Source of the DNA: a virus
IMG/VR virus record: IMGVR_UViG_3300003319_000229
Coordinates: 1-39,083 of that record
Length of the DNA stretch: 39,083 nt
Strand: one strand, 5' to 3'
The number at the start of each line of letters is the position of its first letter. Position 1 is the first letter of the stretch. The notes beneath the pieces were generated by a model. It saw only the letters and a program-made list of their open reading frames with translations. It ran no database searches and was not told the origin of the DNA. Below, in pieces: positions 1 to 39,083 of the stretch. The translations under genes and the position numbers were made by a program.

Positions 1-235
1 CGTATCTTCAGGGTCTATAGAGAAAAATTACAGTAAGTAAAAATCCTATGATGAATGGTTTCATATTTATCCTTAATAAATGGGTTTATTTGATTCAGTA
101 TAGTATAGATCAATTTACTATTGAATAGTAAACCCTTACTAAAACAAATTGAACGCTTGATCCTATAAGTATGTTTTCCCAATTAGAAAAATTAAAAATA
201 GATTGAATCATTATCATAATACCAAAACCGAAAAT
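1..235. repeat. Terminal direct repeat, left copy (identical to 38849..39083)
   Basis: cgtatcttcagggtctatag...accaaaaccgaaaat occurs at both ends of the window. Compared base by base, the 235 nt are identical. Confidence 0.97.
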
Positions 236-14064: not shown

Positions 14065-14337
14065 ATGGATGAGAATTTAATACGCTGTGTACGCTGCAAA
14101 GGACGGAAAAAACTATTTAAAGTTCATGGCGCGTATTCCATGACCAACACGGGTGGCACTGAAGTGACATGCCCGATGTGTAATGGTCTCGGCAAAATGA
14201 AAACCTTGGAACACGCAAAACAAGACATTGAGGGAATGCAGGATGCAATCCGACAATCAGAGTCAAAATCCCAAGCAAGACGAAAAGCCCATCAAAAAGA
14301 AACATCCCGGCGGAAGACCGACGAAGTACACACCTGA
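14065..14337 (+). CDS. zinc-finger mini-protein (CxxCxGxK / CxxCxGxG) with basic tail
   Basis: CVRCKGRK and CPMCNGLG are present. The 3' 95 nt overlap terS in another frame. Confidence 0.45.
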   Translation: MDENLIRCVRCKGRKKLFKVHGAYSMTNTGGTEVTCPMCNGLGKMKTLEHAKQDIEGMQDAIRQSESKSQARRKAHQKETSRRKTDEVHT

Positions 14338-14764
14338 GCTTGCTAAAGAAATATGTCGAATTGTTGCAATAACTCCTTTTGGAATAAGAAAGATTTGCGC
14401 TATGCATGAATGGATGCCTAACGCTGATACTATTCGCGAATGGCGGTTCGATTATCAAGAGTTTTCCGCCTTGTTCGATAAAGCCAAAAGGCAACAAGCT
14501 GATATTTTAGTTGAAGACACAATTGATATTGCAGACGACTCAAGCCAAGACTATATTGTAGGCGAAGATGGTAAAGAAAAAGTTAACACTGAACTTGTTG
14601 CACGATCACGCTTAAAAATCGATACTCGAAAGTTCATGGGAATTAAATTACTTCCTCGAATTTACGGAGACTATGAAGAAGTGAAAGAACAGAACGAAGA
14701 ATTGAAAGAACAAAACAGACAGCTTCGCGCTAAGCTTGATGCGCAGAATAAAAAGGATTATTGA
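14243..14764 (+). CDS. terS: terminase small subunit
   Basis: KKKHPGGRPTKYTPELAKEICRIVA...DTIREWRFDYQEFSALFDKAKRQQADILVED is a typical TerS HTH N-domain. ATG at 14243 has GAGGGA 8 nt upstream (the track start at 14228 is TTG). Confidence 0.75.
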   Translation: MQSDNQSQNPKQDEKPIKKKHPGGRPTKYTPELAKEICRIVAITPFGIRKICAMHEWMPNADTIREWRFDYQEFSALFDKAKRQQADILVEDTIDIADDSSQDYIVGEDGKEKVNTELVARSRLKIDTRKFMGIKLLPRIYGDYEEVKEQNEELKEQNRQLRAKLDAQNKKDY

Positions 14765-15150
14765 TGTCAGAATACAAAAATCCTAAAGAAATAAATACTA
14801 AGTATAGCTATCATAGTCTTCCCTTTGATGAGAATTTTAAATTTCCTGATCCAGAAGAAGTTTATCTTTTAACAAGCTTAATTGAAAAGATTTCTCATGA
14901 GTGCGGAGATATTGCAATAAGTTTTAAATTTCAAGTTTCTAGCGGAGAAAAAACAAACACAAGAATTCAATACAGTCTCTATATAGACCACAGAATTTTT
15001 GAAATGATAGTAGGTTATAGGCATGCTTATATTGATTCATCTTTAGATTGTGCTGATCTTCTATATAAATTTCGTGAAGTTTATTATCACAATAAAGAAA
15101 ATTTAGAGCACGGAATGTGTAATATAGTTTCAATTAAAAAGGACTATTAA
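14764..15150 (+). CDS. hypothetical protein (128 aa)
   Basis: Its ATG overlaps the terS stop (TGATG). Confidence 0.5.
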   Translation: MSEYKNPKEINTKYSYHSLPFDENFKFPDPEEVYLLTSLIEKISHECGDIAISFKFQVSSGEKTNTRIQYSLYIDHRIFEMIVGYRHAYIDSSLDCADLLYKFREVYYHNKENLEHGMCNIVSIKKDY

Positions 15151-15350
15151 TGTTTAACATAATCGACAAACTAAAATCACATATAAAATCCGAAATAGAA
15201 TGCACTCATAATGATTTTATTTTAGCTATTGATTCCGAATCAATTACAAAAGTAAATGATTTCGAGCTTGGGCTCTATAAAGGCAAGATTGAAGCTTTAA
15301 AAGATTTATTAGTCGAGATTAATAACCTACTTCCGAGAGCAGCCAGATAA
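15150..15350 (+). CDS. hypothetical protein (66 aa)
   Basis: Coupled to the upstream gene (TAATG). Confidence 0.5.
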   Translation: MFNIIDKLKSHIKSEIECTHNDFILAIDSESITKVNDFELGLYKGKIEALKDLLVEINNLLPRAAR

Positions 15351-15361
15351 AGGACTAAGCT

Positions 15362-15481
15362 ATGTCAGACGCATTAAAGATTATCATCGAAACTATGATT
15401 AAAGAGTTTGTAGAGAAGCTATATGAGCATTTTAAGAATGAAAGCAAAAATGATCAAGCGCCTCAAGAGCCGAGTTTGTAA
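15362..15481 (+). CDS. possible 39-aa protein (below track cutoff)
   Basis: Hand translation gives MSDALKIIIETMIKEFVEKLYEHFKNESKNDQAPQEPSL. It fills a gap, with AGGA upstream. Confidence 0.3.
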   Translation: MSDALKIIIETMIKEFVEKLYEHFKNESKNDQAPQEPSL

Positions 15482-15483
15482 TC

Positions 15484-15783
15484 ATGGAGCTAAAAATATG
15501 TTGTCCTATTTGTGATAACGAGTTTAAAAAAGAAAATTTCGTAAATTTATTAAGAGAACTTGAAAGAAAAATTAACTCTTTAAGCTCTACATTAAGCTGT
15601 GACATTCCTAGAACAATGAGAAGTTTGTTTGTCGAAATTTATAAAGATATTAAATATGCACAAATAAAAATGAGGCCTTTATCAAATATGATGGAATCAC
15701 AAAACTCAGCTGCTTCGTCAGATGAAAGCTTTAAGAACGAATCTAGCGATAAAAATGAAGAAAACAAACAAGAGGCGCTCTGA
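15484..15783 (+). CDS. hypothetical protein (99 aa) with N-terminal CCPIC
   Basis: ORF only. Confidence 0.5.
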   Translation: MELKICCPICDNEFKKENFVNLLRELERKINSLSSTLSCDIPRTMRSLFVEIYKDIKYAQIKMRPLSNMMESQNSAASSDESFKNESSDKNEENKQEAL

Positions 15784-15983
15784 TGCTGTATAAGATCACA
15801 AATTCTTTTTATATTGATTTTGATGACATTCAGGTTGTTTCTGTTTCTAATGATAATGAGGTTATTATCCGGTTAAAAGGCTCTGGAAGAGAGATATGTA
15901 TCACTATGACTCCGGAAATTTTAAAGAAATTTTTAATGAAGTTGGATGAATTTGTAGGAGATCAGCATTGGTTAAATGTATAG
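15783..15983 (+). CDS. hypothetical protein (66 aa)
   Basis: Coupled start (TGATG). Confidence 0.5.
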   Translation: MLYKITNSFYIDFDDIQVVSVSNDNEVIIRLKGSGREICITMTPEILKKFLMKLDEFVGDQHWLNV

Positions 15984-16095
15984 TATGCAAATCTGATGCC
16001 CCTAATCAAAATGATCGTTATTTTATTATTCCAGGCTACATTAGCTATTATAGACATGAAGTCTAAAACAAATAACATTAAAAAGGAGATTTATT

Positions 16096-16248
16096 ATGCC
16101 ACTAATAAAAGGAAAGAAAGCTAAAACCAAGCAAGGTATTTCTGAGAATATTCGCCGTGAACGAAATTCAGGAAGGCCGGAAAAGCAAGCTATAGCTATC
16201 GAATTTAGTAAAGCTGGAAAGTCGAGGAAAAAGAAAAAGGGTAAATAA
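16096..16248 (+). CDS. small lysine-rich protein, 50 aa (below track cutoff)
   Basis: AAGGAG lies 7 nt upstream. Hand translation gives MPLIKGKKAKTKQGISENIRRERNSGRPEKQAIAIEFSKAGKSRKKKKGK. It replaces the antisense 90-aa track ORF. Confidence 0.65.
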   Translation: MPLIKGKKAKTKQGISENIRRERNSGRPEKQAIAIEFSKAGKSRKKKKGK

Positions 16249-16251
16249 CTC

Positions 16252-16632
16252 ATGAGCGAAAACAAAATGCCATTAATGAGCGCTTTTGATGGCGAAAAAG
16301 AATTATTTTGCACTAATTGTTTGGCTGGATTAGAAGTCTGTCATTGCACATGGGCTGCTATTAGACAGCTTCAAAAAGATGTTCTTGATAGTGAAGAAAG
16401 AATTGGCAGATTAAATAGCTTTGTATGTGAGCAGTCATATAATCAGCATTCTTTAGACAAGAAAATAGAATCGAGACTTGATGAAATGGAGAAAAGATTC
16501 AGTGAATTTGAAAAGCGCTGGAGACAAGGCGCAGCAGAAAGAATAGGTATTTTAGGTAAAGCCTTGAATTATCTATCAGAAGAAAATGAAAGGTTAAGAA
16601 AAACTCCGCATAAATGCCCTAATGGAAAATAG
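16252..16632 (+). CDS. coiled-coil protein with Cys clusters; ends at an in-frame TAG
   Basis: The N-terminus has CTNC...CHC and the C-terminus ends ...HKCPNGK-TAG. The 14 codons after the TAG encode IDCYCCKGTGIVWG. Confidence 0.55.
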   Translation: MSENKMPLMSAFDGEKELFCTNCLAGLEVCHCTWAAIRQLQKDVLDSEERIGRLNSFVCEQSYNQHSLDKKIESRLDEMEKRFSEFEKRWRQGAAERIGILGKALNYLSEENERLRKTPHKCPNGK

Positions 16633-16667
16633 ATCGATTGTTACTGTTGCAAAGGAACCGGAATAGT

Positions 16668-16886
16668 ATGGGGATGAAAGAATGGATTAGTGTTAAAGAT
16701 CGATTGCCTGAAAAAAACCAAAAAGTTTTGGTTTATGCAAAAGATAAAGATTCTTATTTGATAGAATTAGCAGAGTTTTTACCTGATCAATCTTTCTGGT
16801 TTATAGGAGAAGGATGGAACAATAAATATATATCAAATTTGATAAAATGCTGGATGTCTTTGCCCGAGCCGCCGAATGAATCTTGA
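16668..16886 (+). CDS. DUF551-domain protein
   Basis: MGMKEWISVKDRLPEKNQKVLVY...CWMSLPEPP. ATG at 16668 follows AAGGAA (the track start is TTG). Confidence 0.7.
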   Translation: MGMKEWISVKDRLPEKNQKVLVYAKDKDSYLIELAEFLPDQSFWFIGEGWNNKYISNLIKCWMSLPEPPNES

Positions 16887-16957
16887 GACAATTGAAAACA
16901 TAAATAAATATTCACCTAACTTATTAGAGTTTTACTTACTGTGCGAGGCTAACAAAT

Positions 16958-17434
16958 ATGCTATTAGAAAAACAAGTTTGTTCGTTACAATTATCCAAGC
17001 GATTAAGGGAATTGGGCGTTAAGCAGGAAAGTTTATTTTGTTATCAAGCTATAAAAAATTCTAAACATGAGATATGGCCTAGAAAATTTAATTTGAATGA
17101 GTTTTTTGAGCCATCAGAAGATGAAAGAATGGCTGCTTTCACCGTAGGAGAGCTTGGTGAGCTGCTTCCAAAAAGAATTTTTATAACAGCAGATAATTCA
17201 AAATATCCGGTTACTGATAATGCATCTCTATTATTGAGCTATGATCAAGCAATATATCCATTATACTCAGATATTTTTGGACTCTGTAAAGCGATTCATC
17301 CTCAATACGAAGATAATGAAACAGAAGCCAATGCCCGCGCAAAAATGATAATATACTTGATTGAAAATGGTTTGATTGAAGTGAGGAAAATAAATCATGA
17401 AAGAACCTTATATGGAAAAATGCAAAATTCTTGA
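16958..17434 (+). CDS. hypothetical protein, paralog of 5426..5950
   Basis: See 5426..5950. It has the same position relative to a DUF551 gene. Confidence 0.65.
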   Translation: MLLEKQVCSLQLSKRLRELGVKQESLFCYQAIKNSKHEIWPRKFNLNEFFEPSEDERMAAFTVGELGELLPKRIFITADNSKYPVTDNASLLLSYDQAIYPLYSDIFGLCKAIHPQYEDNETEANARAKMIIYLIENGLIEVRKINHERTLYGKMQNS

Positions 17435-17696
17435 TGATATTGTAATGATTATTGATAATCATACACAAAAACATGATTCTGAATATTATATGCTCGAATT
17501 TTCAATTAACTGGATTATAATTATAAATTCTGGAATTAATTTTTTAAACCATATAAAGGATGAATTTTTAAAACTTTCGATAGAATCAGGATATTCTGAA
17601 AATTCATTTTATAAAAAAATATGCGAATTTTTAGAATCTATTAAAAATGTTCCATTAATAAAAAACGAGAACTTAAAAAGCCATGATCCAACTTAA
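17397..17696 (+). CDS. hypothetical protein (99 aa)
   Basis: ORF only. The start is uncertain (alternative ATG at 17412). Confidence 0.45.
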   Translation: MKEPYMEKCKILDDIVMIIDNHTQKHDSEYYMLEFSINWIIIINSGINFLNHIKDEFLKLSIESGYSENSFYKKICEFLESIKNVPLIKNENLKSHDPT

Positions 17697-17795
17697 TTTA
17701 CCAATCCCTATGAAAACGTTAGATTATAAAGAGCGACTTGATCGGCTATTGAAACAAATGAAAAAAGGAAGACTGATAAGATAAATTGCTGTTTA

Positions 17796-17821
17796 ATGTT
17801 AATTAACATGGATGTTAATTA
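17796..17821. promoter_or_regulatory. 14-bp perfect palindrome plus extra half-site immediately upstream of terL
   Basis: atgttaattaacat (17796-17809) is followed by atgttaatta (17812-17821). Confidence 0.35.
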
Positions 17822-17822
17822 G

Positions 17823-19367
17823 ATGGAATTCGACTATGAAAAGGAACAAGAAGCTGCTCGTCTTCGCGGCAGTCTCATTGAGTTTACCCGTTACTTTTTT
17901 CAGCATATTACTGGCCGTGAGTTTCTGGTATCAGCCCCCATCGGAAGAGAGAGTCATCATGTTACAGTGTGCCGCTCGCTCACCCACGTACAACGACTTG
18001 AGCGGTTAAGGGAAATACTAAATCTTCCGCCCGGCTCAGGTAAATCTACTTTAGTCTCGATGTTTATTGCATGGTGCTGGGCAAGCTTTCCTGACTCCAA
18101 TTTTCTGTATATTTCTTACTCTCATGAGGTTGCAAAAAAACATACGAGTTTTGTTAAAAGTATTGTATCCTCGCGCATGTATAACTATCTGTTCGATATT
18201 TCGATTGATTCAGACAGCAGGGCAAAGGATGCCTTCAAAACTAATCATGGCGGCTTTTTAAGGGCTTTCGGAAGCTCCGGCGCGGTCACAGGCCAAGACG
18301 GCGGTTTGCCAGCGCTAGATCGATTTAGCGGCGCTGTCATTATTGATGACGCCCATAAGCCAGATGAAGTTCATTCAGATACGATTCGACAGGGAGTGAT
18401 AAAGAATTATGATGAGACGATTCGTCAGCGTGTTCGCGGCATTAATGTGCCAATTATCTGTATTGGTCATAGGCTTCATGAGTCTGACCTATTTGACTAT
18501 CTTATAAGCGGTAAAGACACCGATACATGGCATCAAACAGTCTTGGAATCCATTGATGGGGCAGGGAATGCGTTATATCCCGAAATGATGCCGCTTGAAA
18601 AACTTTTAGCGCTTCGTGAAAAATCCCCATATGTCTATTGGAGCCAGTATCAACAAAAGCCTGTTCCTTCAGGCAATGCTTTATTTAAGCCAGAATGGTT
18701 TGTTGAGCTTGATCAAGAACCCCAATTTCTCTCAACCTTCATTACAGCAGATACCGCCGAAACAGATAAATCATGGAATGATGCGACTGTATTTAGCTTT
18801 TGGGGCGTATATGAAATTGAAAACTACGGCAAGAAAACAGGTAAACTCGGGCTTCACTGGCTAGATTGCGTTGAAATGCGAATAGAGCCTAAAGACCTAG
18901 AATCAGCCTTCATTGATTTTCATGCAAATTGTACACTTCATCCTGTCCAGCCTTTGATGGCCGCCATTGAAAAGAAATCAACAGGAGTAACCCTTGTCAG
19001 CGTATTAAAAAATATCAGAGGGCTTTCTGTTCGAGAGGTTGAAAGAACGCGAGATTCTGGAAGTAAAACGAAACGTTTTCTTGAAATGCAGCCTTACATT
19101 GCCGAAAAACGCATATCCTTTACGACAGGCGCTAAGCACAAAAACCTCTGTATTGATCATATGTCTAAGATTACGGCCAATGATGCCCACAGACATGACG
19201 ATATAGCAGATACCCTTAGTGATTCGATACGTATCGCGCTTATTGAAAAAACGATATACAATATTGACACGAGACAGGAGTCTCAGAAACGGATTTACAT
19301 AGGCTTGAATAATCAATTGCGCAAACGGATTCGCGCGAGCGAGGCAAGGAATGCCCGAATTAGCTAA
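17823..19367 (+). CDS. terL: terminase large subunit
   Basis: Walker A LPPGSGKST and Walker B AVIIDDAHKPDE are present. The C-terminal nuclease-type acidic residues include ITADTAETDK and HDDIADTLSD. Confidence 0.85.
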   Translation: MEFDYEKEQEAARLRGSLIEFTRYFFQHITGREFLVSAPIGRESHHVTVCRSLTHVQRLERLREILNLPPGSGKSTLVSMFIAWCWASFPDSNFLYISYSHEVAKKHTSFVKSIVSSRMYNYLFDISIDSDSRAKDAFKTNHGGFLRAFGSSGAVTGQDGGLPALDRFSGAVIIDDAHKPDEVHSDTIRQGVIKNYDETIRQRVRGINVPIICIGHRLHESDLFDYLISGKDTDTWHQTVLESIDGAGNALYPEMMPLEKLLALREKSPYVYWSQYQQKPVPSGNALFKPEWFVELDQEPQFLSTFITADTAETDKSWNDATVFSFWGVYEIENYGKKTGKLGLHWLDCVEMRIEPKDLESAFIDFHANCTLHPVQPLMAAIEKKSTGVTLVSVLKNIRGLSVREVERTRDSGSKTKRFLEMQPYIAEKRISFTTGAKHKNLCIDHMSKITANDAHRHDDIADTLSDSIRIALIEKTIYNIDTRQESQKRIYIGLNNQLRKRIRASEARNARIS

Positions 19368-21474
19368 GATTCATGCTGATCGTTTAGTCGATCTTAAGCA
19401 GAAAGTTGAAGAAGCACAGAAAGCAAACAGAGCAAACGTCGATCGTTTTGAAAAGTTTGTTAAGTTTGTCTTTAAAACCTCTCTTACGGATGATCAAGCA
19501 GGCACACTGGCCGACAACGGTTATCCCACTCTCGAATTCAACATCCTAGAATCATTCGTATCAAGAAAACGCGGTGAGTTTGCTAAGCAGCAACCAAGCT
19601 TAACCGTTCGTGCAGCCGATGGCATTCCGCTCAATCTCTTAAATGATGAATTCATTGCGACACTGAATGTTGTTGAAGCGCACTTGCGAGCCATCTTCTT
19701 CGATGGCGCAAATGACATGCTTGATTATAACGTATTTTCTGATTTGCTGGCAGGCGGATTTTCAGTTCTTCGCGTATATACCGACTACGTTAACGAAATG
19801 AGCTTTGAACAGAATATCTGTGTTGAGCGAGTGTTTGATCCAACGCTTACTGTATTTGATCCATTAGCAAGAAAATCTCATAAAGGTGATGGACGCTTTT
19901 GCGCTGAAATTTATCCCATGACACAGAAACAATTCGAGGATGAATTTGGCGAAGAAGTTGCGCAGGAAATGAAATATACGCGTAATTTATCAGGCTTTGA
20001 CTGGTCATTTGAAAATGAAAGAGAAAAAATAGTTTTAGTATGTGATTTTTACGAGAAAAAAACAAAGCCCGCAACGATTTATAAGTTATCTAATGGCCAT
20101 AGCATTACAAAAGAAGAATATGACAAATTTAAAGAACAATGGGATGCATCAGGCTATGTTGAACAAATGCCAATTCCCATTCATAAACGTAAAACAATTA
20201 TCGAATATATTTGCCGATATCGATTTTGTGAATCGCGGGTATTGGAATATAAAGAAACTGATTTTAAATATTTACCCCTTGTCTTTATCGATGGCAATAG
20301 CGTTGTTATAAAAGATGGGAGCAACTATACACAGATGACGCGTCCTTATGTTTATCATGCAGAAGGTATTCAGCGATTAAAGAATTTTGCAGGACAGTCG
20401 CTTGGCAATGAACTGGAAAATACGATTCAGCATAAATTTATTGTGGCCATTGAGTCCATTCCGGAAGATTATCAAGACGCATATCAGAATGTACAGAAAG
20501 CCGATACGCTGGTATACAATCATTTTTTAGATACCAATAATCCCAATGTCACGTTGCCCGCACCGCGTGAAGTTGCGAGAACCCCTATTCCCCCTGAGAT
20601 CACTAATACATTTAAAATGTCTGATGAGATGACGCAGACTATTTTAGGATCGTACGATCCTTCGATGGGAATGAATAATGCTGCGATGTCCGGTATCGCA
20701 TTTGCGAGAAGCGCAATTCAGGGAGATGGCGCATCTGTTCCCTATATTGTTGGATACATTAAAGGATTAAATCGTGTGGCACAGATAATTGTTGATCTTA
20801 TTCCAAAATATTATAGAACTCCTCGAAGCCTTCCTATTCTAAAACCAAATGGCGAGAGATCATTTGTTGAGATCAATAAACGCGGATCGCTTTACATGAA
20901 TTACGATCCGAACTCCTTGCAAGTGAAGGTCGAAACAGGCGTTAACTTTGCGATGCAAAAAGAAATGGCATTACAGACTGTGATACAGCTTTCACAAGCT
21001 AACAAAGGATTTGCAGAATTCTTTAATGAAGAAGGATTGCCTACATTGCTTGATAATATCGAAATGCGCGGTATTGATGAGCTCAAAGAAAAAGCCAATA
21101 AGTGGATGGCTCAACAAAAACAAATGAAAGCAATGGCGATGCAGCAACAACAAGGCCAAATGCAAATGGAAGCTAAAAAGCAAGCCATGGAAATGATGGC
21201 AATGCAAAAAGAGATTCAATCTCCAACAGAAGCTCAAGTGGGTCTGATGATGATCCAAGAAAAAGCACAAAACGATGCTGCAAACTTGGAATTAAAAGAA
21301 CGCGATTCACAAACTAAATTCTTAGAGACAATCAGTAAGATCAGAAATGCAGACGTACAAAACGAATTAAAAGCAGCTGAACTTGATGCAGAGAATACCC
21401 GAAGTGCGGTTGAGGCTGCAATCAAGGTCAGTAGTCATATTCAAGAACAATTGAGGCCACAAACGCATGTTTAA
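19351..21474 (+). CDS. portal protein
   Basis: A 707-aa protein overlapping the terL stop. It has a Gln/Met-rich helical C-terminal tail (MAQQKQMKAMAMQQQQGQMQMEAKKQAMEMMAMQKE), as in long-barrel portals. Confidence 0.75.
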   Translation: MPELAKIHADRLVDLKQKVEEAQKANRANVDRFEKFVKFVFKTSLTDDQAGTLADNGYPTLEFNILESFVSRKRGEFAKQQPSLTVRAADGIPLNLLNDEFIATLNVVEAHLRAIFFDGANDMLDYNVFSDLLAGGFSVLRVYTDYVNEMSFEQNICVERVFDPTLTVFDPLARKSHKGDGRFCAEIYPMTQKQFEDEFGEEVAQEMKYTRNLSGFDWSFENEREKIVLVCDFYEKKTKPATIYKLSNGHSITKEEYDKFKEQWDASGYVEQMPIPIHKRKTIIEYICRYRFCESRVLEYKETDFKYLPLVFIDGNSVVIKDGSNYTQMTRPYVYHAEGIQRLKNFAGQSLGNELENTIQHKFIVAIESIPEDYQDAYQNVQKADTLVYNHFLDTNNPNVTLPAPREVARTPIPPEITNTFKMSDEMTQTILGSYDPSMGMNNAAMSGIAFARSAIQGDGASVPYIVGYIKGLNRVAQIIVDLIPKYYRTPRSLPILKPNGERSFVEINKRGSLYMNYDPNSLQVKVETGVNFAMQKEMALQTVIQLSQANKGFAEFFNEEGLPTLLDNIEMRGIDELKEKANKWMAQQKQMKAMAMQQQQGQMQMEAKKQAMEMMAMQKEIQSPTEAQVGLMMIQEKAQNDAANLELKERDSQTKFLETISKIRNADVQNELKAAELDAENTRSAVEAAIKVSSHIQEQLRPQTHV

Positions 21475-22240: not shown

Positions 22241-22960
22241 ATGGACGAAAGTCAAGTTAATGGAATGGATGTACAAGGTGGTATGTCTGGAAAGCCGCAG
22301 GATGCGGAAAAGCTATTTACTCGGGATGAGTTAGCCCAGATTGTTGCCACTCAGAGAAATGCCGCTGCACGAGAGACTGAAGAGCGTTTGAGAAAACAGC
22401 GAGAAACAGAAGCTATCCAAGCTGCACAACAGCAAAGGAATAGCGAAGTGCCTCGCGATGTTGATACAGATGCTATCTATCAAAAAGTGCAGGAACGCTT
22501 TAACCAAGACTTACAAAAGAGAGCAGAAGAGGAACGCCATCAGGCCATCAAGGATGCTTGGCACCAAGCTGCAACGTCGTATGTAACGAAGGTAAACGCA
22601 GGCAAATCTCAGTACTCCGATTTTGACGAAGTAACGAAAGATTTTGACCCCGCTGCCTTTCCGCAATTGATGTATTTAATTTCCGGAATGGATAACGCAG
22701 CAGATATCGTCTACGACCTTTCGAAAAATTCGTTAAAAATGGCCGGACTTGACAGGCTAGCTGAACGTAACCCACGACAAGCGACCGCTGAATTAGCAAA
22801 GCTCGCTCAATCGATCAATGCTAATAAACAAGCTCAGATGGATGCTGAATCTCAAGTTACGAATGCGCCACTCGACCGTTTGAAACCTTCCGTTGTTTCG
22901 GGAAGCAACGGAAAGATGAGCATTCAAGACCTGCAAAACCAACCTTGGCTTAGAGGTTAG
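22241..22960 (+). CDS. scaffolding protein (putative)
   Basis: Charged, helical, Gln/Glu/Ala-rich sequence (ERLRKQRETEAIQAAQQQ...), placed between the portal and capsid genes. Confidence 0.55.
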   Translation: MDESQVNGMDVQGGMSGKPQDAEKLFTRDELAQIVATQRNAAARETEERLRKQRETEAIQAAQQQRNSEVPRDVDTDAIYQKVQERFNQDLQKRAEEERHQAIKDAWHQAATSYVTKVNAGKSQYSDFDEVTKDFDPAAFPQLMYLISGMDNAADIVYDLSKNSLKMAGLDRLAERNPRQATAELAKLAQSINANKQAQMDAESQVTNAPLDRLKPSVVSGSNGKMSIQDLQNQPWLRG

Positions 22961-23011
22961 AACTCATAACCGTTGCAATTTGATTCTCCACATGGACAGG
23001 GAGCATTTGCA

Positions 23012-23442
23012 ATGCCAGTCAATATTTTGCAACAGGTTCAGACGTATAACGACTCGAACCTTGCCTTACTACTTAACTCATTTGCTTTTATTAGCACTAG
23101 TAACAAAAAGTTCGAACGGTTCAATGATAGTGTTCCGAAAAATTTGGGCGACACGGTTACGTTTGATCTACCTCCGCGATTCACCACTACGAATAGCTTG
23201 ATTGCAAGCTTTCAGGGTGCAGAACAGCGCGTACAACCATTAAAAGTTGATAAGCAGGCATCAACTTCTTACGAATTTACAGCGCAACAATTTATTTTTA
23301 ATGTTCGCGATTACATGGAAAAATTCGGTAAATCAGCGATTGCGGAACTTGGCACACAAGTAGAAGCAGATGTCGCAGAACTTGCCGAAACGAATACTTT
23401 CCGTTTTTATGGGGATGGTGTAACACCGATTTCGACATACCT
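23012..23442 (+). CDS. major capsid protein, exon 1
   Basis: ATG at 23012 follows GGGAG. It reads MPVNILQQVQTYND...FRFYGDGVTPISTY and ends at a U that can pair with G of an internal guide. The track ORF runs on to a TAG inside the intron. Confidence 0.65.
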
Positions 23443-23694
23443 TAAGTTTAGGGTCGCTGCCTAGTAATAGGCAGATGTAACTGGGTGAACTCAGGGGAAA
23501 TCTCAAGTAGATAATCCTGATCCAAGCCTCAAAAGATCGAGGAAGGAGCAACGACTAGGTCGAAAGACCGTACTCTCAAGTGAGAGGAAGCGCCCAGCTC
23601 CACGAAAGTGGATGAAGATATAGTCTAATCTACCGAGAGATCGGTAGCAGCCGAAAGGCGAAGCAAGATTAACGACCTTGTTTGAATATGAATG
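23443..23694 (+). ncRNA. group I self-splicing intron, ORF-less (IA-like architecture)
   Basis: A P1 with a U.G wobble, R-like gcaacgactagg and S-like gaagatatagtc (P7), a ctggg/cccag P3 and several GNRA-capped hairpins are present. The terminal base is G at 23694. Length is 252 nt (a multiple of 3), and removal restores one ORF. Confidence 0.75.
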
Positions 23695-24508
23695 ACAACT
23701 CGCAAATGCATTAGCCTTCTTTAGAAACTTTGGGGCTGCTAAAGATAATACTAAAGGCTATTTGTCTGACTTGACTTTCCCTGCTGTCGTAAACAGTGGA
23801 TTAAATCAATTCACTTTGAATCGCGGCAATCGCGAAGCAAATAGCTGGGAAATTGGTGCATTCTCTAATTGTGAATGGTATCAATCAAATCTTTTGAAAA
23901 CCCATGTAGCGGGAACTGAGGGTAACGCAGGTGCTGCTTTAACTGTCGTAAGCGTTGTAACCAATGCAGATGGCGGCGTGATACAAATTACTTTTAGTGG
24001 TACAACTGCTGCAAGTGATCCTGATTCCATTAAAGCCTATGACAAGTTCATGTTTAGTGATGGCATTTCTGGAAAGCCAAATCTTCGCTTCTTAACATTC
24101 ATCGGACACAAACCAAGTCAAAGCCCTGTGCAATTCAGAGCAACTGCTGATGCTGCATCTACCGCTGGCTCTCAGGTAACAGTTGATATTTATCCACCCT
24201 TACAAGCGACAGCTGGAAAGAACCAAAACATCAACAATGCGATTGTTGCAGGCATGCAAGTAACCGTACTGCCTGATCATCGATGCGGTTTGATTATGTC
24301 TGGTAATCCGTTGTTTTTAGCTATGCCAAAGCTTCCGGAAGAAGTTCCCTATCCAACATCTGATTCGATGGATCCAAATAGTGGTGCTTCTATTCGTATG
24401 TACTACGGCTCGCTCTTTGGACAGAATCAACGTGGAACCATTCATGATGTCATCTGGGGTAAAACGTTGGTTGATGAATATGCAATGATGGTCGCATTGC
24501 CAGTTTAA
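23695..24508 (+). CDS. major capsid protein, exon 2
   Basis: The frame is open from 23696 (QLANALAFFRNFGAAKDNTKGYLSDL...), well upstream of the TTG at 23762 used by the track. It is in the same frame as exon 1. The spliced product would be 414 aa. Confidence 0.65.
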
Positions 24509-24516
24509 CATACAAA

Positions 24517-24540
24517 TGACCCCTATGTAAATAGGGGTCA
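24517..24540 (+). other. strong stem-loop after the capsid gene (no U-tract)
   Basis: A 10-bp stem tgacccctat/ataggggtca is capped by GTAA. Confidence 0.6.
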
Positions 24541-24574
24541 AGTAAAATATTAAAAAATTTTCAGGAGAATCAGC

Positions 24575-25375
24575 ATGAGCGCGATCCCTCAGACGCCAAT
24601 TGTTAATGCTGGCAATGTTTACGTAAATGGACTTAATGTGGGATGGGGAAGCAATTCAACCATCACTATTACTCAAGGTCTCGCAAGAGACAGTCTGAAT
24701 GTAAATGATATTATTTTAGGTACATTTGATACTGGATCGCCTTTGTGGACGAACATAGCAGCCACAATTGATGGAGATGTTATTGGTGCAAATGGAATGG
24801 ATAGAGCGGTCGCTGCGGTTAGCACACGATACTCTGTTTTTGTCATAGGGGATTCTACAGGATACCACCCAAGCGCGGGCTTATTAAGCCCAAGCTCGAA
24901 TAATCCTATCCTTCCGCTTGGCTATGACATGTTCAGACGAATCGGTGTAGTTGCAACTGATGGATCAGCCCATTTCTTAAAGATATCACAATACGGACAA
25001 GGGCTTTATAGGACTAATTTTTTAGATGTTGGGATCAATGTTTTAACAGCAGGAAACGCCACATCTTTCACCGAATTAAATTTAGAAGGTCTTGCAAAGG
25101 CATTTCCATCTATCCCATGCAAAGCCTATCTCAAAGTTAATTATACACCCGCTTCTGCCACCAATATAGCTCATTTCTTGCCATTCGGATCAACTGCAAC
25201 GAATGGAATAGTGGTTTTTGGCACAGGCGTTGCGGGAGCGCAGCAAGGAATTATTGAAGTTCCCACCGCAGGTGGCCCGGGAGCATCTTCAATACTTTAT
25301 AAAGTATCCAATGCAGGGGATTCTTTAACCCTCGATGTCATTGGTTTCGATGATTATTTATACGGAGCAGCTTAA
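24575..25375 (+). CDS. virion structural protein, tandem paralog A
   Basis: MSAIPQTPIVNAGNVYVNGL...ARDSLNVNDI...GANGMDR...YSVFVIGDSTGY...PILPLGYDMFRRIG aligns throughout with the next gene. Confidence 0.6.
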   Translation: MSAIPQTPIVNAGNVYVNGLNVGWGSNSTITITQGLARDSLNVNDIILGTFDTGSPLWTNIAATIDGDVIGANGMDRAVAAVSTRYSVFVIGDSTGYHPSAGLLSPSSNNPILPLGYDMFRRIGVVATDGSAHFLKISQYGQGLYRTNFLDVGINVLTAGNATSFTELNLEGLAKAFPSIPCKAYLKVNYTPASATNIAHFLPFGSTATNGIVVFGTGVAGAQQGIIEVPTAGGPGASSILYKVSNAGDSLTLDVIGFDDYLYGAA

Positions 25376-25390
25376 TTCAAGGAGATTAAC

Positions 25391-26173
25391 ATGACTGCAA
25401 TTCCCCAAACCCCGATTGTAAACGCAGGTGAACGATATATTACAGGTCTGTCACTTGCATGGGTTGATGATACACATATTACGATCAGCGAAGGTCAGGC
25501 AAGAGATAGCTTAAATATTAATGACATCAGTCTTGGCACTTATGTTTTTAATGAAGAAACAGTAGGTGCAACCATTAATATTGGTGTAGTTGGCGCGAAT
25601 GGAACAGATCGTCCAGTTGCGGCTAGTTCACGTTATGCAATTTTCGTAATCGGTGACTCGACAGGATATAATGCATCAGCAGGTCTCGCATCTGTTAGCA
25701 CAAATGATCCCATCCTTCCCAAAGGCTACGATATGTTTAGACGTGTTGGATTTGTTTCAACCGATGGATCAACGCATATCAGGAAGTTCTATCAATATGG
25801 CGAAGGAATGATTCGATCATATTACTTCGATGTTCCGGAAACTCTTTTGTCAGGTGGAAGTGATACTTCTTTTACAGCTGTCACATTAACAGCAAGTTTA
25901 GGCGGCCTTCCTATCTCTACTGAAGTGCTTTTAGGAGTGACATATACACCTAATAGCGCTGCAAACGTAGCTCATTTCTTGCCAGATGGCTCAACGGCTA
26001 CAAATGGTTTAGTTCGCTTTGGGTGTGGTGTTGCAGCCGTACAACAAGGAACTATTACTGTGCCTGCGATCGGAGCACTTGGAACCACTAAATTTCTTTA
26101 CAAGGTCTCTGCAAGCGATTCATTGACGCTGACAATGGCTGGCTATAAAGATTATTTATATCCGCCTCAGTAA
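25391..26173 (+). CDS. virion structural protein, tandem paralog B
   Basis: MTAIPQTPIVNAGERYITGL...ARDSLNINDI...GANGTDR...YAIFVIGDSTGY...PILPKGYDMFRRVG. Confidence 0.6.
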   Translation: MTAIPQTPIVNAGERYITGLSLAWVDDTHITISEGQARDSLNINDISLGTYVFNEETVGATINIGVVGANGTDRPVAASSRYAIFVIGDSTGYNASAGLASVSTNDPILPKGYDMFRRVGFVSTDGSTHIRKFYQYGEGMIRSYYFDVPETLLSGGSDTSFTAVTLTASLGGLPISTEVLLGVTYTPNSAANVAHFLPDGSTATNGLVRFGCGVAAVQQGTITVPAIGALGTTKFLYKVSASDSLTLTMAGYKDYLYPPQ

Positions 26174-26219: not shown

Positions 26220-26927
26220 ATGGCCTACACGACAACAGAATTGATTGTTGGGTCTTTCACTGCGAGCGGCGTTGTTTCAAAAGAATTTGAAACAGTGAGC
26301 GGCGAGCAAATACACGAAGGACTTCTCTGGTTAAACGATATCATTGGCGAAAAAGATGTTGATCAAGCCATGATACCGTATGAAAGCACTTATACGGCGA
26401 ATTTTGTAACCGGACAAGAAATTTACAGTATTCCGAATCTTATTACAGTAGATACGCTCGTCTTTTATTTAGACCAAGTGCGATACGCGATGCAATATAC
26501 AAAGCGTAATAAGTATTTCGGTTCCAGTCGTGTAGAAAACATCCAAACCTTACCATTTGAATGGTATTTTGAAAGGGAATTTGGCGGTGGAAATCTTTAC
26601 ATATATTTTAAACCAGATCGAAATTATCCGATGGAAATTCATGGTATTTTTCGGCTACCCTCGGTTACGCTTGGGCAAGACTTAAGTTTAACGCTTGATC
26701 AATTTTATAGAACCTATTTACGCTATGCATTAGCAGATCGTATTTGCTCGGAATATAACTTTGCAACTCCTCCGAATGTGATTCGTCAATTAAGTAAATA
26801 CGAATCATGGATTGCCAAAAAATCTCGATTGATTGATCTTCGCTTAACGAAATCATCCACTCTACAAAAACGTGGTGGCTTTAACTACGCGTTCGCGAAT
26901 TTAGGAAAAGGCTGGTGGCCAGTATGA
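26220..26927 (+). CDS. head-to-tail adaptor-like protein (putative)
   Basis: Assigned from its position just upstream of the hub-like gene and its size (235 aa). The LNDIIGEKDV segment is reminiscent of podovirus adaptor N-termini. Weak. Confidence 0.35.
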   Translation: MAYTTTELIVGSFTASGVVSKEFETVSGEQIHEGLLWLNDIIGEKDVDQAMIPYESTYTANFVTGQEIYSIPNLITVDTLVFYLDQVRYAMQYTKRNKYFGSSRVENIQTLPFEWYFEREFGGGNLYIYFKPDRNYPMEIHGIFRLPSVTLGQDLSLTLDQFYRTYLRYALADRICSEYNFATPPNVIRQLSKYESWIAKKSRLIDLRLTKSSTLQKRGGFNYAFANLGKGWWPV

Positions 26928-28510
26928 GCGCTTCACGAGCCGTACAAAATGCTGAACAAGTGCCTATCAATATCGTAGGTTCAAGCACGTTTGGGATTTA
27001 TCCTAAAATTAGCGCTGAACGCACTTACAATATGTTTATCTCCGATGGTTGGTTAATTAATTACGCTGGATTTAAAAAGAAAATTCAGTTCACATCAACC
27101 GGCCAAGGAAGAGCGTTATTTCGTTCAATACGCGGTGGATTTTTAATCGCGGTTGAAGGAAATAGCGTTTTTCGTTTGAATGATAATTTAGTTCCGATTC
27201 TTTTAGGACAGTTAAATACTACCACTGGATTTGTGTCGATTGCTGAAAACCTATCAAGCCAAATATGTTTGGTAGATGGTGAAAAAGCATATATTTATAA
27301 TTACTCAAACAATACATTTACCGTTCAGAGTTTAGTGTTTGTTGGAAATCCTGTCATACCGAATTATGTGAGCTATCACAATTCATTCTTTTTAATAGCA
27401 TCATCTAAGACAAGCATTAATCCGCAGTTTTGGTATGCTTTTGAACGTGATACCGATACTACAATCAAGGTTAATAAACAATTTGAAATTCAGACTAAAT
27501 CAGATTTTGCATTATCGGTTGTGCGTCTTCCTGGGAGAGGAAATAACGTTATTGTGCTTGGATCAAGTGTAGCAGAGATTTGGACGCAAGTGGGCGCCGA
27601 AGAAAACTATAGACGTGTTCAGTCATTCAATATCGATAATGGCGTTGTTTCTGTCGAGACAATTGCAGCAAGTGAGGAGTTTGTAGCGTGGCTTGCACAA
27701 AATGAAAATAATTCCCCTGTCATTATGGTAACAGATGGCGGATCAACAAAAAGAATTTCAACAGATGGGATAGACCATATTCTTTCGCTGATCACTCATC
27801 CTGATCAATCAAGCGGATTTTTCTATCGACAAGATGGGCATTTGTTTTATCAACTGACGTTTTACCATCCTGATGACAATCTAACATTGATTCATGACTT
27901 CACAACCAATATGTTTTTTGATGTGGTTGATGAAAAGATGAATTACCATCCAGCGCGTCAGGTGGTTTATTTCAATGAACGTACTTATTTCACATCGATC
28001 AATGATGCAAGTATTTATGAAATGAGCCCTTCTCTTATTACATATGATTATGATACGACGCCTAATACAGTGGGTAATGAAATACCACGCATTAGAATTT
28101 GTAAATCTGTCAGAAAAGAAGATTCATCTATTTTTCGAGCAGGAATGTTTACGTTTTGGATCGAGCAAGGCGTTAATAAATATTATCTGACTTCTGATCC
28201 TACAGATTGCCAAGGCTTTGTTATAGCACAAAACGGTGATTTTATTATCGCGCAAAATGGAGATTTCATTATCACAGAAGATTTTGCATGTAATGATAAT
28301 CAATTTATTCCACGTGTTGATATGTCATTTTCAAAAAATGGCAATCAATCATTTAGCAATATTGTAGGACGAGAGCTTAATCCAGCAGGAAAATATCGTA
28401 ATCAGATTCGTTGGTATCAGATGGGTCAAGCGAATGAATTTACGATTCAGTTGCGCTTCTGGGGATTTCAAAGATTTGTATGTGGCAATGGCGTTTTGGA
28501 GGTGTATTGA
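26924..28510 (+). CDS. tail hub / DNA-stabilization-type protein (P22 gp10-like, putative)
   Basis: The 528-aa product has repeated beta-strand blocks. Its C-terminus, SFSKNGNQSFSNIVGRELNPAGKYRNQIRWYQMGQANEFTIQLRF, resembles the C-terminal pattern remembered for P22 gp10. The ATG at 26924 overlaps the upstream stop (ATGA). Confidence 0.45.
   Translation: MSASRAVQNAEQVPINIVGSSTFGIYPKISAERTYNMFISDGWLINYAGFKKKIQFTSTGQGRALFRSIRGGFLIAVEGNSVFRLNDNLVPILLGQLNTTTGFVSIAENLSSQICLVDGEKAYIYNYSNNTFTVQSLVFVGNPVIPNYVSYHNSFFLIASSKTSINPQFWYAFERDTDTTIKVNKQFEIQTKSDFALSVVRLPGRGNNVIVLGSSVAEIWTQVGAEENYRRVQSFNIDNGVVSVETIAASEEFVAWLAQNENNSPVIMVTDGGSTKRISTDGIDHILSLITHPDQSSGFFYRQDGHLFYQLTFYHPDDNLTLIHDFTTNMFFDVVDEKMNYHPARQVVYFNERTYFTSINDASIYEMSPSLITYDYDTTPNTVGNEIPRIRICKSVRKEDSSIFRAGMFTFWIEQGVNKYYLTSDPTDCQGFVIAQNGDFIIAQNGDFIITEDFACNDNQFIPRVDMSFSKNGNQSFSNIVGRELNPAGKYRNQIRWYQMGQANEFTIQLRFWGFQRFVCGNGVLEVY
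28226..28273 (+). repeat. 2 x 24-nt tandem repeat inside the hub-like gene
   Basis: gcacaaaacggtgattttattatc / gcgcaaaatggagatttcattatc encode AQNGDFII twice. Confidence 0.8.
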
Positions 28511-38483: not shown

Positions 38484-38868
38484 CGTTATACGTGGAACAT
38501 TAAAAAACGGTGAAATATCAGAGGCGTCTATTCAGGCATCAATACTTGAATGGGCGTCTATTGATCCTATAATTAAAAAATATAGGCGTTTTATTATTCA
38601 TTTTCCTAATGAAGGTAAACGCACGCGTTGGTATGGCGCCCATCTCAATCGTTTAGGAATGAGAAGGGGTGTTTCTGATATTTTTATAGCGGTTCCTCGA
38701 CATGGATTTGGTGGCGCATGGATTGAGCTTAAAAGTAAAAACGGTAAATTAACAGATGATCAAATAAAATTTATTGATGACATGAAATCTCAGAATTACT
38801 ACACTGAAGTGTGCCGGTCTTTTGAAGAGGCTCAAGCGAAAATCTTGGCGTATCTTCAGGGTCTATAG
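38440..38868 (+). CDS. VRR-NUC domain nuclease
   Basis: GVSDIFIAVPRHGFGGAWIELKSKNGKLTDDQIKFIDDMKSQNYYTEVCRSFEEA matches the VRR-NUC core (D...E-x-K, then Q). There is no in-frame ATG/GTG/TTG after the upstream stop, so the start at 38440 overlaps the fibre gene by 44 nt and is uncertain. Confidence 0.7.
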   Translation: MILLLLTNYFVQRANVIRGTLKNGEISEASIQASILEWASIDPIIKKYRRFIIHFPNEGKRTRWYGAHLNRLGMRRGVSDIFIAVPRHGFGGAWIELKSKNGKLTDDQIKFIDDMKSQNYYTEVCRSFEEAQAKILAYLQGL

Positions 38869-39083
38869 AGAAAAATTACAGTAAGTAAAAATCCTATGAT
38901 GAATGGTTTCATATTTATCCTTAATAAATGGGTTTATTTGATTCAGTATAGTATAGATCAATTTACTATTGAATAGTAAACCCTTACTAAAACAAATTGA
39001 ACGCTTGATCCTATAAGTATGTTTTCCCAATTAGAAAAATTAAAAATAGATTGAATCATTATCATAATACCAAAACCGAAAAT
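38849..39083. repeat. Terminal direct repeat, right copy (identical to 1..235)
   Basis: See the left copy. The repeat begins 20 nt before the VRR-NUC stop codon. Confidence 0.97.

Follow-up and report, generated by a model that had tools for sequence, protein, structure and literature searches.

The introns of T4 td and of orf142 of Staphylococcus phage Twort are small IA2-type group I ribozymes that lie in essential phage genes and carry helices P7.1/P7.2 together with P9.1/P9.2. Twort orf142 holds several related introns without an open reading frame (ORF) in one gene, and the T4 td intron carries an endonuclease ORF. We describe here a further group I intron, ORF-less unlike that of td, found in the virus record IMGVR_UViG_3300003319_000229 of IMG/VR, whose whole analyzed stretch of 39,083 nucleotides (nt) is referred to below as the window. 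The intron occupies 252 nt of the + strand (23443..23694, last base G23694) inside the major capsid protein gene. Such elements have been published before for the major head protein gene of lactococcal phage Tuc2009 and the capsid subunit gene of mycobacteriophage LittleE, as has an ORF-less, endonuclease-free intron of 265 nt in a tail gene of phage BAKA, and splicing was shown by experiment for LittleE and BAKA (PMC3706429; PMC2504315). All three are, like the one in the window, group I introns in virion structural genes, a likeness by description and not by sequence, and they differ from it in belonging to siphoviruses of Gram-positive hosts; the LittleE intron, moreover, is 819 bp long and carries an endonuclease gene. 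Small ORF-less introns are also abundant in some huge phages (PMC12880540). The intron of the window is hence an addition to an already known class of phage capsid-gene group I introns, and the remark in the initial annotation of this stretch that introns are uncommon in capsid genes has to be tempered, given the published cases and the insertions carried by 6 of 80 related contigs. The less ordinary part of our finding is the distribution of this intron type over multiple sites within one protein gene.

The interrupted gene consists of two exons:

23012..23442, + strand: first exon of the major capsid protein gene, with codons 1-143 and bases one and two of Leu144; aligns with homolog residues 1-144
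23695..24508, + strand: exon 2 of the same gene, from the third base of Leu144 to the stop codon; aligns with residues 145-414

Two same-frame ORFs lie here (22973..23464 and 23762..24508), and a TGA at 23693-95 closes the frame of the second one upstream, so that it is open back to 23696. Both the ORF listing and the translation bore out these boundaries, which had been the starting point for proposing one split protein; its predicted length of 414 amino acids also stood, with the most likely start being the ATG at 23012 and not the TTG at 22973. Joining 23012..23442 to 23695..24508 yields this 414-residue protein, and the in-frame join is confirmed at the DNA level by the closest intron-less homolog (locus L001), which aligns with a clean 252-nt gap and reads TAT TTA CAG CTT where the window has TAC CT, the intron, and A CAA CTC. 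The spliced product matched the phrog_283 major head protein in a single stretch (residues 5-406, E 1e-21) and, in one tblastn piece, coat proteins annotated in Vibrio and Shewanella phages. A large protein collection returned 2799 candidates at E <= 0.001, the best 120 of which are nearly all 414-416 residues long (404-425 overall) and 81-87% identical to the query, most of them over its full length; with more than 100 of these uninterrupted proteins the query aligns gap-free. When the spliced protein was aligned with 13 of these homologs (alignment A1), there was no gap at the junction, where the window sequence ...GDGVTPISTYLQLANALAFFRNFGAAKD... (STYL followed by QLANAL) is the same as in the best homolog and L144, Q145 and L146 are invariant; a comparison with uninterrupted homologs had been suggested at the outset as a check on colinearity, and this is its outcome. 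Ligated exons would be predicted to read ...CGACAUACCU joined to ACAACUCGCAAAU..., and the junction-spanning coat peptide would be ...TPISTYLQLANALAFFR....

Source annotations name the homologs "P22 coat protein - gene protein 5" or "Major capsid protein Gp5". Because the A1 profile matched the Sf6 gene 5 coat protein structures in the PDB (5l35 and 7sp4, residues 41-337, E 1.4e-5), we assign the host gene to the P22/Sf6-type coat proteins. A PDB search with the spliced protein as single sequence gave noise only, and Pfam at E <= 0.01 returned no family for it.

The intron is richer in G+C (46.4%) than the window (36.8%) and the exons (41-43%), and stop codons interrupt all six frames of 23443-23694, leaving no ORF of endonuclease size; the longest stop-free run, about 60 codons on the - strand, lacks a start codon. 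Its description as GC-richer, ORF-less and free of a homing endonuclease was in this respect accurate. Translation continuing from exon 1 would end 7 codons into the intron, at an in-frame UAG (23462-64) inside P2. Among GenBank phages no near-identical DNA was found for 22900-24600, and an exact 38-mer of the intron, sought in IMG/VR, was not found.

The group I assignment is carried by three lines of evidence, namely a covariance model, folding energy, and compensatory change. The whole window was scanned with Rfam at the gathering threshold (50 bits for RF00028), and Intron_gpI (RF00028) was the sole match, at 23433-23647 (+), with 72.4 bits, E 1.2e-16 and model positions 1-253 of 253 covered, as the covariance-model check proposed in the initial annotation had anticipated. 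The fold z-score of the intron region is -5.06, and none of 200 shuffles folded as well. In a MAFFT alignment of the window intron with four relatives, made from sequence only (A4), standard pairs fill 98.8% of 321 cells and 30 of 66 pairs show double-sided, compensatory changes, values of pairing and change that 0/500 shuffles reached; controls in which the 3' partners were slid by 1-3 columns had 30-41% pairing and at most 3 pairs with compensatory changes. From A4 we built a covariance model, R1, which matches the window once (23455-23694, 267 bits). Among 77 distinct family members, aligned by fitting to R1 and hence biased towards the structure, 94.2% of cells are paired and 57 of 59 pairs show double changes, compared with 40-42% pairing when slid. 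The features of the ribozyme, all on the + strand, are the following:

23439..23454: P1 hairpin, exon ACCU plus intron UA pairing with the guide UAGGGU; Rfam alignment, isolated hairpin -4.4 kcal/mol
23457..23474: P2 hairpin, compensatory changes in 6/6 pairs
23481..23487 with 23591-23597: P3, 7 pairs, 2 compensatory, 100% paired
23491..23547: P4-P5-P6-P6a domain, holding these four helices
23491-96/23515-20: P4, invariant
23501-03/23509-11: P5, with the outermost pair 23500/23512 not kept in relatives
23521-23/23545-47: P6, compensatory changes seen
23527-30/23539-42: P6a, 4/4 pairs compensatory
23553..23557 (GACUA) with 23621-23625 (UAGUC): P7, invariant in five aligned relatives and part of the elements conserved in the Rfam alignment
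23558-61/23566-69: P7.1 with a GAAA loop, 2/4 pairs compensatory
23573-77/23582-86: P7.2, 3/5 pairs compensatory
23591..23625: P3 3' strand, P8, J8/7 and P7 3' strand; Rfam alignment and A4 covariation
23599-603/23608-12: P8; Rfam alignment and A4 covariation
23628-29 with 23692-93: P9.0, 2 bp, enclosing P9, P9.1 and P9.2; 93.5% paired with double changes in the 77-sequence set
23630-36/23641-47: P9, 4/7 pairs compensatory
23650-52/23657-59: P9.1, compensatory changes seen
23663-67/23677-81: P9.2 with the conserved loop UAACGA, 4/5 pairs compensatory; the hairpin folds alone

Compensatory changes in the relatives thus involve P2, P3, P6, P6a, P7.1, P7.2, P8, P9, P9.1 and P9.2; P4 and P7 are invariant in A4, with P7 paired in 100% of cases, and for P5 and P9.0 such changes appear only in the larger, model-fitted alignment. 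P7 is expected to be the guanosine-binding helix, pseudoknotted with P3. Every coordinate of the earlier reading proved exact against the sequence, including its five hairpins (23457-74, 23558-69, 23573-86, 23600-11 and 23630-47), the core elements gcaacgactagg (23548-59) and gaagatatagtc (23614-25), and the strands ctggg (23481-85) and cccag (23593-97). These last form part of P3, which had been recognized correctly and is 7 bp long (23481-87/23591-97) rather than 5; likewise, the helices it listed are all there, and P4, P5, P6/P6a, P9.1 and P9.2 are to be added. The IA-type layout it predicted, with P7.1 and P7.2 between P7 and the P3 3' strand, is confirmed by the compensatory changes in both hairpins, of which 98-99% of cells are paired in the 77-sequence set. 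P7.1/P7.2 are listed among the features that define group I classes (PMC3984707), and the intron, read from its layout alone, would appear IA2-like rather than IA1 or IA3.

To place the intron among its relatives, we retrieved 80 IMG/VR loci with a coat gene of this family and located the spliced protein on each of them. The capsid gene is interrupted in 6 of the 80:

L164, L165 and L167: 247 nt, between codons 46 and 47; sister group I intron
L212 and L204: 248 nt, between codons 146 and 147; sister group I intron
L206:1476-1678: 203 nt, between codons 91 and 92, in a related capsid gene (66-74% amino acid identity); an insertion without Rfam or R1 match, discussed below

The five sister introns score 75-83 bits with Rfam and 275-280 bits with R1, are 78-90% identical to the window intron over 234 positions, form the same helices, and are likewise ORF-less; their removal restores a 1245-nt in-frame coding sequence (414 residues) in L212, L164 and L167. 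Relative to the window's, the insertion site lies 7 nt downstream in L212 and about 293 nt upstream in L164, and no intron was found at the window's exact site, inside codon 144, in any of the 80 loci. Each site falls in a block of the protein that is invariant in A1. Only the P1/guide segment differs among these introns, and it does so together with the exon that it pairs with, the guide/exon pairs being GGGU/ACCU in the window, GAGC/GCUU in L212 and GCCU/AGGU in L164. The hexamer 5' of the window's site, ATACCT, was counted 3 times among 38 alleles lacking the intron, all of which have a T just before that site. These same-gene introns came to light only through capsid homologs with over-long matches; a pattern of the P7-P7.1 segment, scanned across metagenomes, gave 10 loci, all outside this capsid family.

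Two observations on the sister introns deserve mention. The P9.2 loop (23668-23676) keeps UAACGA, or UAGCGA in some members, across the subfamily while its stem covaries; no convincing conserved partner was found for this motif, as the pairing with GUCG (23453-56) that is available in the window is absent in L212 and L164. In addition, the AUG that ends the intron shares the frame of exon 2 in L212 (L212:1302-1304) and L164 (L164:2883-2885) but not in the window, and because of this AUG gene callers start the second capsid fragment within the sister introns.

The splice sites are supported at 23442/23443 and 23694/23695, where the sequence predicts them. Exon 1 would end in U23442, which forms a U.G wobble with G23451 within ACCUUA/UAGGGU, and at each of the three insertion sites the P1 hairpin was found to fold with a U.G at the splice junction. 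At the other end, GAAUAU(G/A)AAUG is common to the window intron and to L212, L164 and L167, and the 2-bp P9.0, just 5' of the terminal G, covaries. Hairpin folding, the conserved 3' end and read-through of the sister genes accordingly uphold what had been claimed for the U.G wobble and the terminal G23694, and the pairs acct (23439-42)/gggt (23451-54) and agtt (23445-48)/aact (23697-700) were found as given. The second of these, the proposed P10, does exist as a pairing, even though it is weak, offset and not evident in L212.

Taken together, these data make it very probable that 23443..23694 is a functional, self-splicing, ORF-less group I intron in a P22/Sf6-like coat gene. By the established chemistry of group I introns, a free guanosine held in P7 would attack the phosphodiester after U23442, and the freed 3' OH of exon 1 would then attack after G23694, this terminal G being positioned by P9.0 and by the weak and offset P10; the exons would be ligated to ...UAC CUA CAA CUC..., encoding Y-L-Q-L. 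On unspliced RNA, ribosomes would halt at the UAG at 23462-64 and release a fragment of 150 residues only, so that capsid production would depend on efficient splicing. The need for efficiency also follows from the coat protein being among the most heavily expressed phage proteins, an argument made earlier for mycobacteriophage LittleE (PMC3706429). In practical terms, gene callers will split this capsid gene into two fragments, and recognizing the intron restores the 414-residue coat protein.

Several points weigh against this conclusion. Splicing itself, in this genome, is something that we infer. The minimum-free-energy fold pairs the guide (23450-56) with CGACCUU (23673-79) and not with the exon. 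A junction joining 23443 to 23696 (CUU) would encode Leu144 just as well as the one joining 23442 to 23695 (CUA), and we chose the latter because of the U.G wobble, the terminal G23694 and the shared 3' end. P10 (23445-48/23697-700) comprises 4 bp, is two bases off the splice site and, as said, has no evident counterpart in L212. Finally, no HNH, GIY-YIG or LAGLIDADG Pfam domain was present in 30 ORFs of the window, including both small ORFs between portal and scaffold genes, in a search that covered these 30 rather than every small ORF and that divergent endonucleases could escape. We considered the pairing of the guide with 23673-79 as a functional alternative to P1 and rejected it, as it is absent in L212 and clashes with the covarying P9.2.

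Among other explanations, the one that fares best, although we regard it as improbable, is that the intron has decayed and no longer splices, leaving the capsid gene as a pseudogene of a phage genome that is defective or mis-assembled. The weakness of P10 would fit such a view, as would the reliance on inference for splicing here and the absence of the exact portal protein and exon-1 ORF product from a public protein collection and gene index. Decay, however, is at odds with core helices that are all intact and with the compensatory nature of the differences by which the window departs from its relatives; in addition, neither exon is broken or out of frame, both are 81-87% identical to homologs that look functional and have kept the invariant blocks, and the genome closes by an exact terminal overlap of 235 nt and has a complete structural module. 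That the window encodes two separate capsid polypeptides, with the structured RNA as an intergenic regulatory element, is very unlikely. Two ORFs with possible TTG starts can indeed be listed mechanically, yet single-chain homology reaches the stop at 23693-95, 22 codons upstream of the first possible start at 23762, the RNA between the ORFs has the covariance-model score of a complete group I ribozyme, and no relative is split without an insertion, judging by the full-length homologs listed and the 80 contigs; the possibility raised in the initial annotation, homologs that are truly two polypeptides, is not borne out among them. Equally unlikely is an assembly chimera, in which the assembler joined the group I intron of another genome into the capsid gene, for although the window appears to be a metagenome-type assembly and the intron has a G+C of 46%, above its flanks, the boundaries fall exactly at U and G, removal restores the frame to the base, the guide is complementary to this particular exon, and sister introns sit just as precisely in genes of the same family on independent contigs from different samples.

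With a functional self-splicing intron as the preferred reading, the sister copies at two further sites of this gene family show that the lineage has changed position, and the question arises of how related introns came to occupy different positions of the same gene. One possible, and tentative, answer is that a single ORF-less lineage moved among at least three positions (between codons 46 and 47, inside codon 144, and between codons 146 and 147) with retargeting of its guide. The introns share more nucleotide identity (78-90%) than the host coding sequences do (69-73%), which fits horizontal spread and could also reflect a stronger constraint on the ribozyme. As the intron lacks an endonuclease, it would either be inherited passively or move with help supplied in trans or by an RNA-level route. 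Possible routes would be reverse splicing followed by adaptation of the guide, or recombination swapping the P1 segment; simple reverse splicing does not explain the different guide sequences. A 2014 review found mobility by reverse splicing to be without direct experimental support, the evidence being circumstantial and coming from related introns at different sites of ribosomal DNA (PMC3984707), and how group I introns without endonuclease reach new sites is described in reviews as unresolved. If true, movement of this lineage would be natural evidence, from a protein gene, for endonuclease-independent transposition of group I introns. One ribozyme lineage at three sites with different guides, along with many intron-less alleles, would in any case make a compact natural test system for site acquisition.

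We also weighed, and rejected, sliding of the intron between the window and L212 sites, since the 7 nt A CAA CTC are 3' of the window intron and 5' of that of L212, and point mutations at splice sites cannot move them across the intron. The insertion of L206 was not accepted as a fourth copy of the lineage, with no Rfam match at E <= 1 and no R1 match; it does contain a P7-like ACGACUA...AUAGUCU and has a fold z-score of -2.84, and could be a group I intron that is strongly reduced or divergent.

Further relatives were found in other phages. A related ORF-less intron is present, unannotated, in Phage C72C1 (OQ984150.1, L229:2477-2724; R1 186 bits, 74% identity over 61% of the query), where it splits the major head protein just 3' of the head scaffolding gene; the comparison with the window was one of the introns themselves. 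The GenBank record of Phage C72C1 contains the same annotation error predicted here, with "major head protein" annotated as two coding sequences and small reverse-strand hypothetical ORFs placed between them (L229:2152-3353). In three cultured phages related introns reside in other host genes, namely DNA polymerase in Pseudoalteromonas phage pYD6-A and Acinetobacter phage vB_Ab_1137_KEN_02 and large terminase in Vibrio phage qdvp001, with 68-72% identity over 61-86% of the window intron, and some of them lie near HNH endonuclease genes. The vB_Ab_1137_KEN_02 intron scores 170 bits with R1; the DNA polymerase of this phage (PP841130.1, L230:1095-4318) is annotated in three coding sequences, and related introns scoring 170 and 92 bits, along with HNH endonuclease genes, lie between these sequences and after them. 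A distant subfamily member (L122, 231 bits) lies in another capsid-like gene, where the protein frame alone allows either U271...G533 or U272...G534 as boundaries. The host gene of another distant member (L130) is read as a probable tail sheath gene from its N-terminal sequence alone. Two low-G+C IMG/VR loci, L114 and L108, contain tandem IA-type intron matches (at least 13 and 6, respectively) within a few kb, and Glutamine-II riboswitch matches at L124:511-570 and L128:5662-5717 have a related group I intron a few hundred bases away.

As for the genome that carries the intron, the first 235 nt of the window (1-235) are identical to its last 235 nt (38849-39083), and because of this exact terminal repeat we take the genome to be closed, either circular or terminally redundant, with a length of 38,848 bp (~38.8 kb). 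The phage is podovirus-type and P22-like. The genes around the intron-bearing coat gene are, in order:

14228-14764: small terminase (Sf6-type)
17823-19367: large terminase
19351-21474: portal
22241-22960: head scaffolding protein, directly upstream of the coat gene; PHROGs match
24575-25375 and 25391-26173: two tandem paralogous ORFs of 266 and 260 residues, 56% identical, directly downstream of the coat gene; no PHROG match
26915-28510: head-closure protein

The neighbors of the capsid gene were compared with PHROGs only, which identified the upstream one as head scaffolding protein and gave no match downstream. Coat homologs are encoded in Legionella maceachernii ATCC 35300 (NZ_FUXJ01000015.1, 62% identity) and in a metagenome-assembled genome of the Coxiellaceae (49%), and these homologs, with the 37% G+C of the window, hint that phages of this group may have a Legionellales host. 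How many ORFs lie just 3' of the capsid gene, and how large they are, appears to vary among relatives, and about 3 kb between the small and large terminase genes (14764-17823) are filled with small ORFs without family matches. Just past the capsid stop codon, at 24517-24540, a G+C-rich hairpin of 10 bp (TGACCCCTAT-GTAA-ATAGGGGTCA) is found, with a T-run on the - strand side only.

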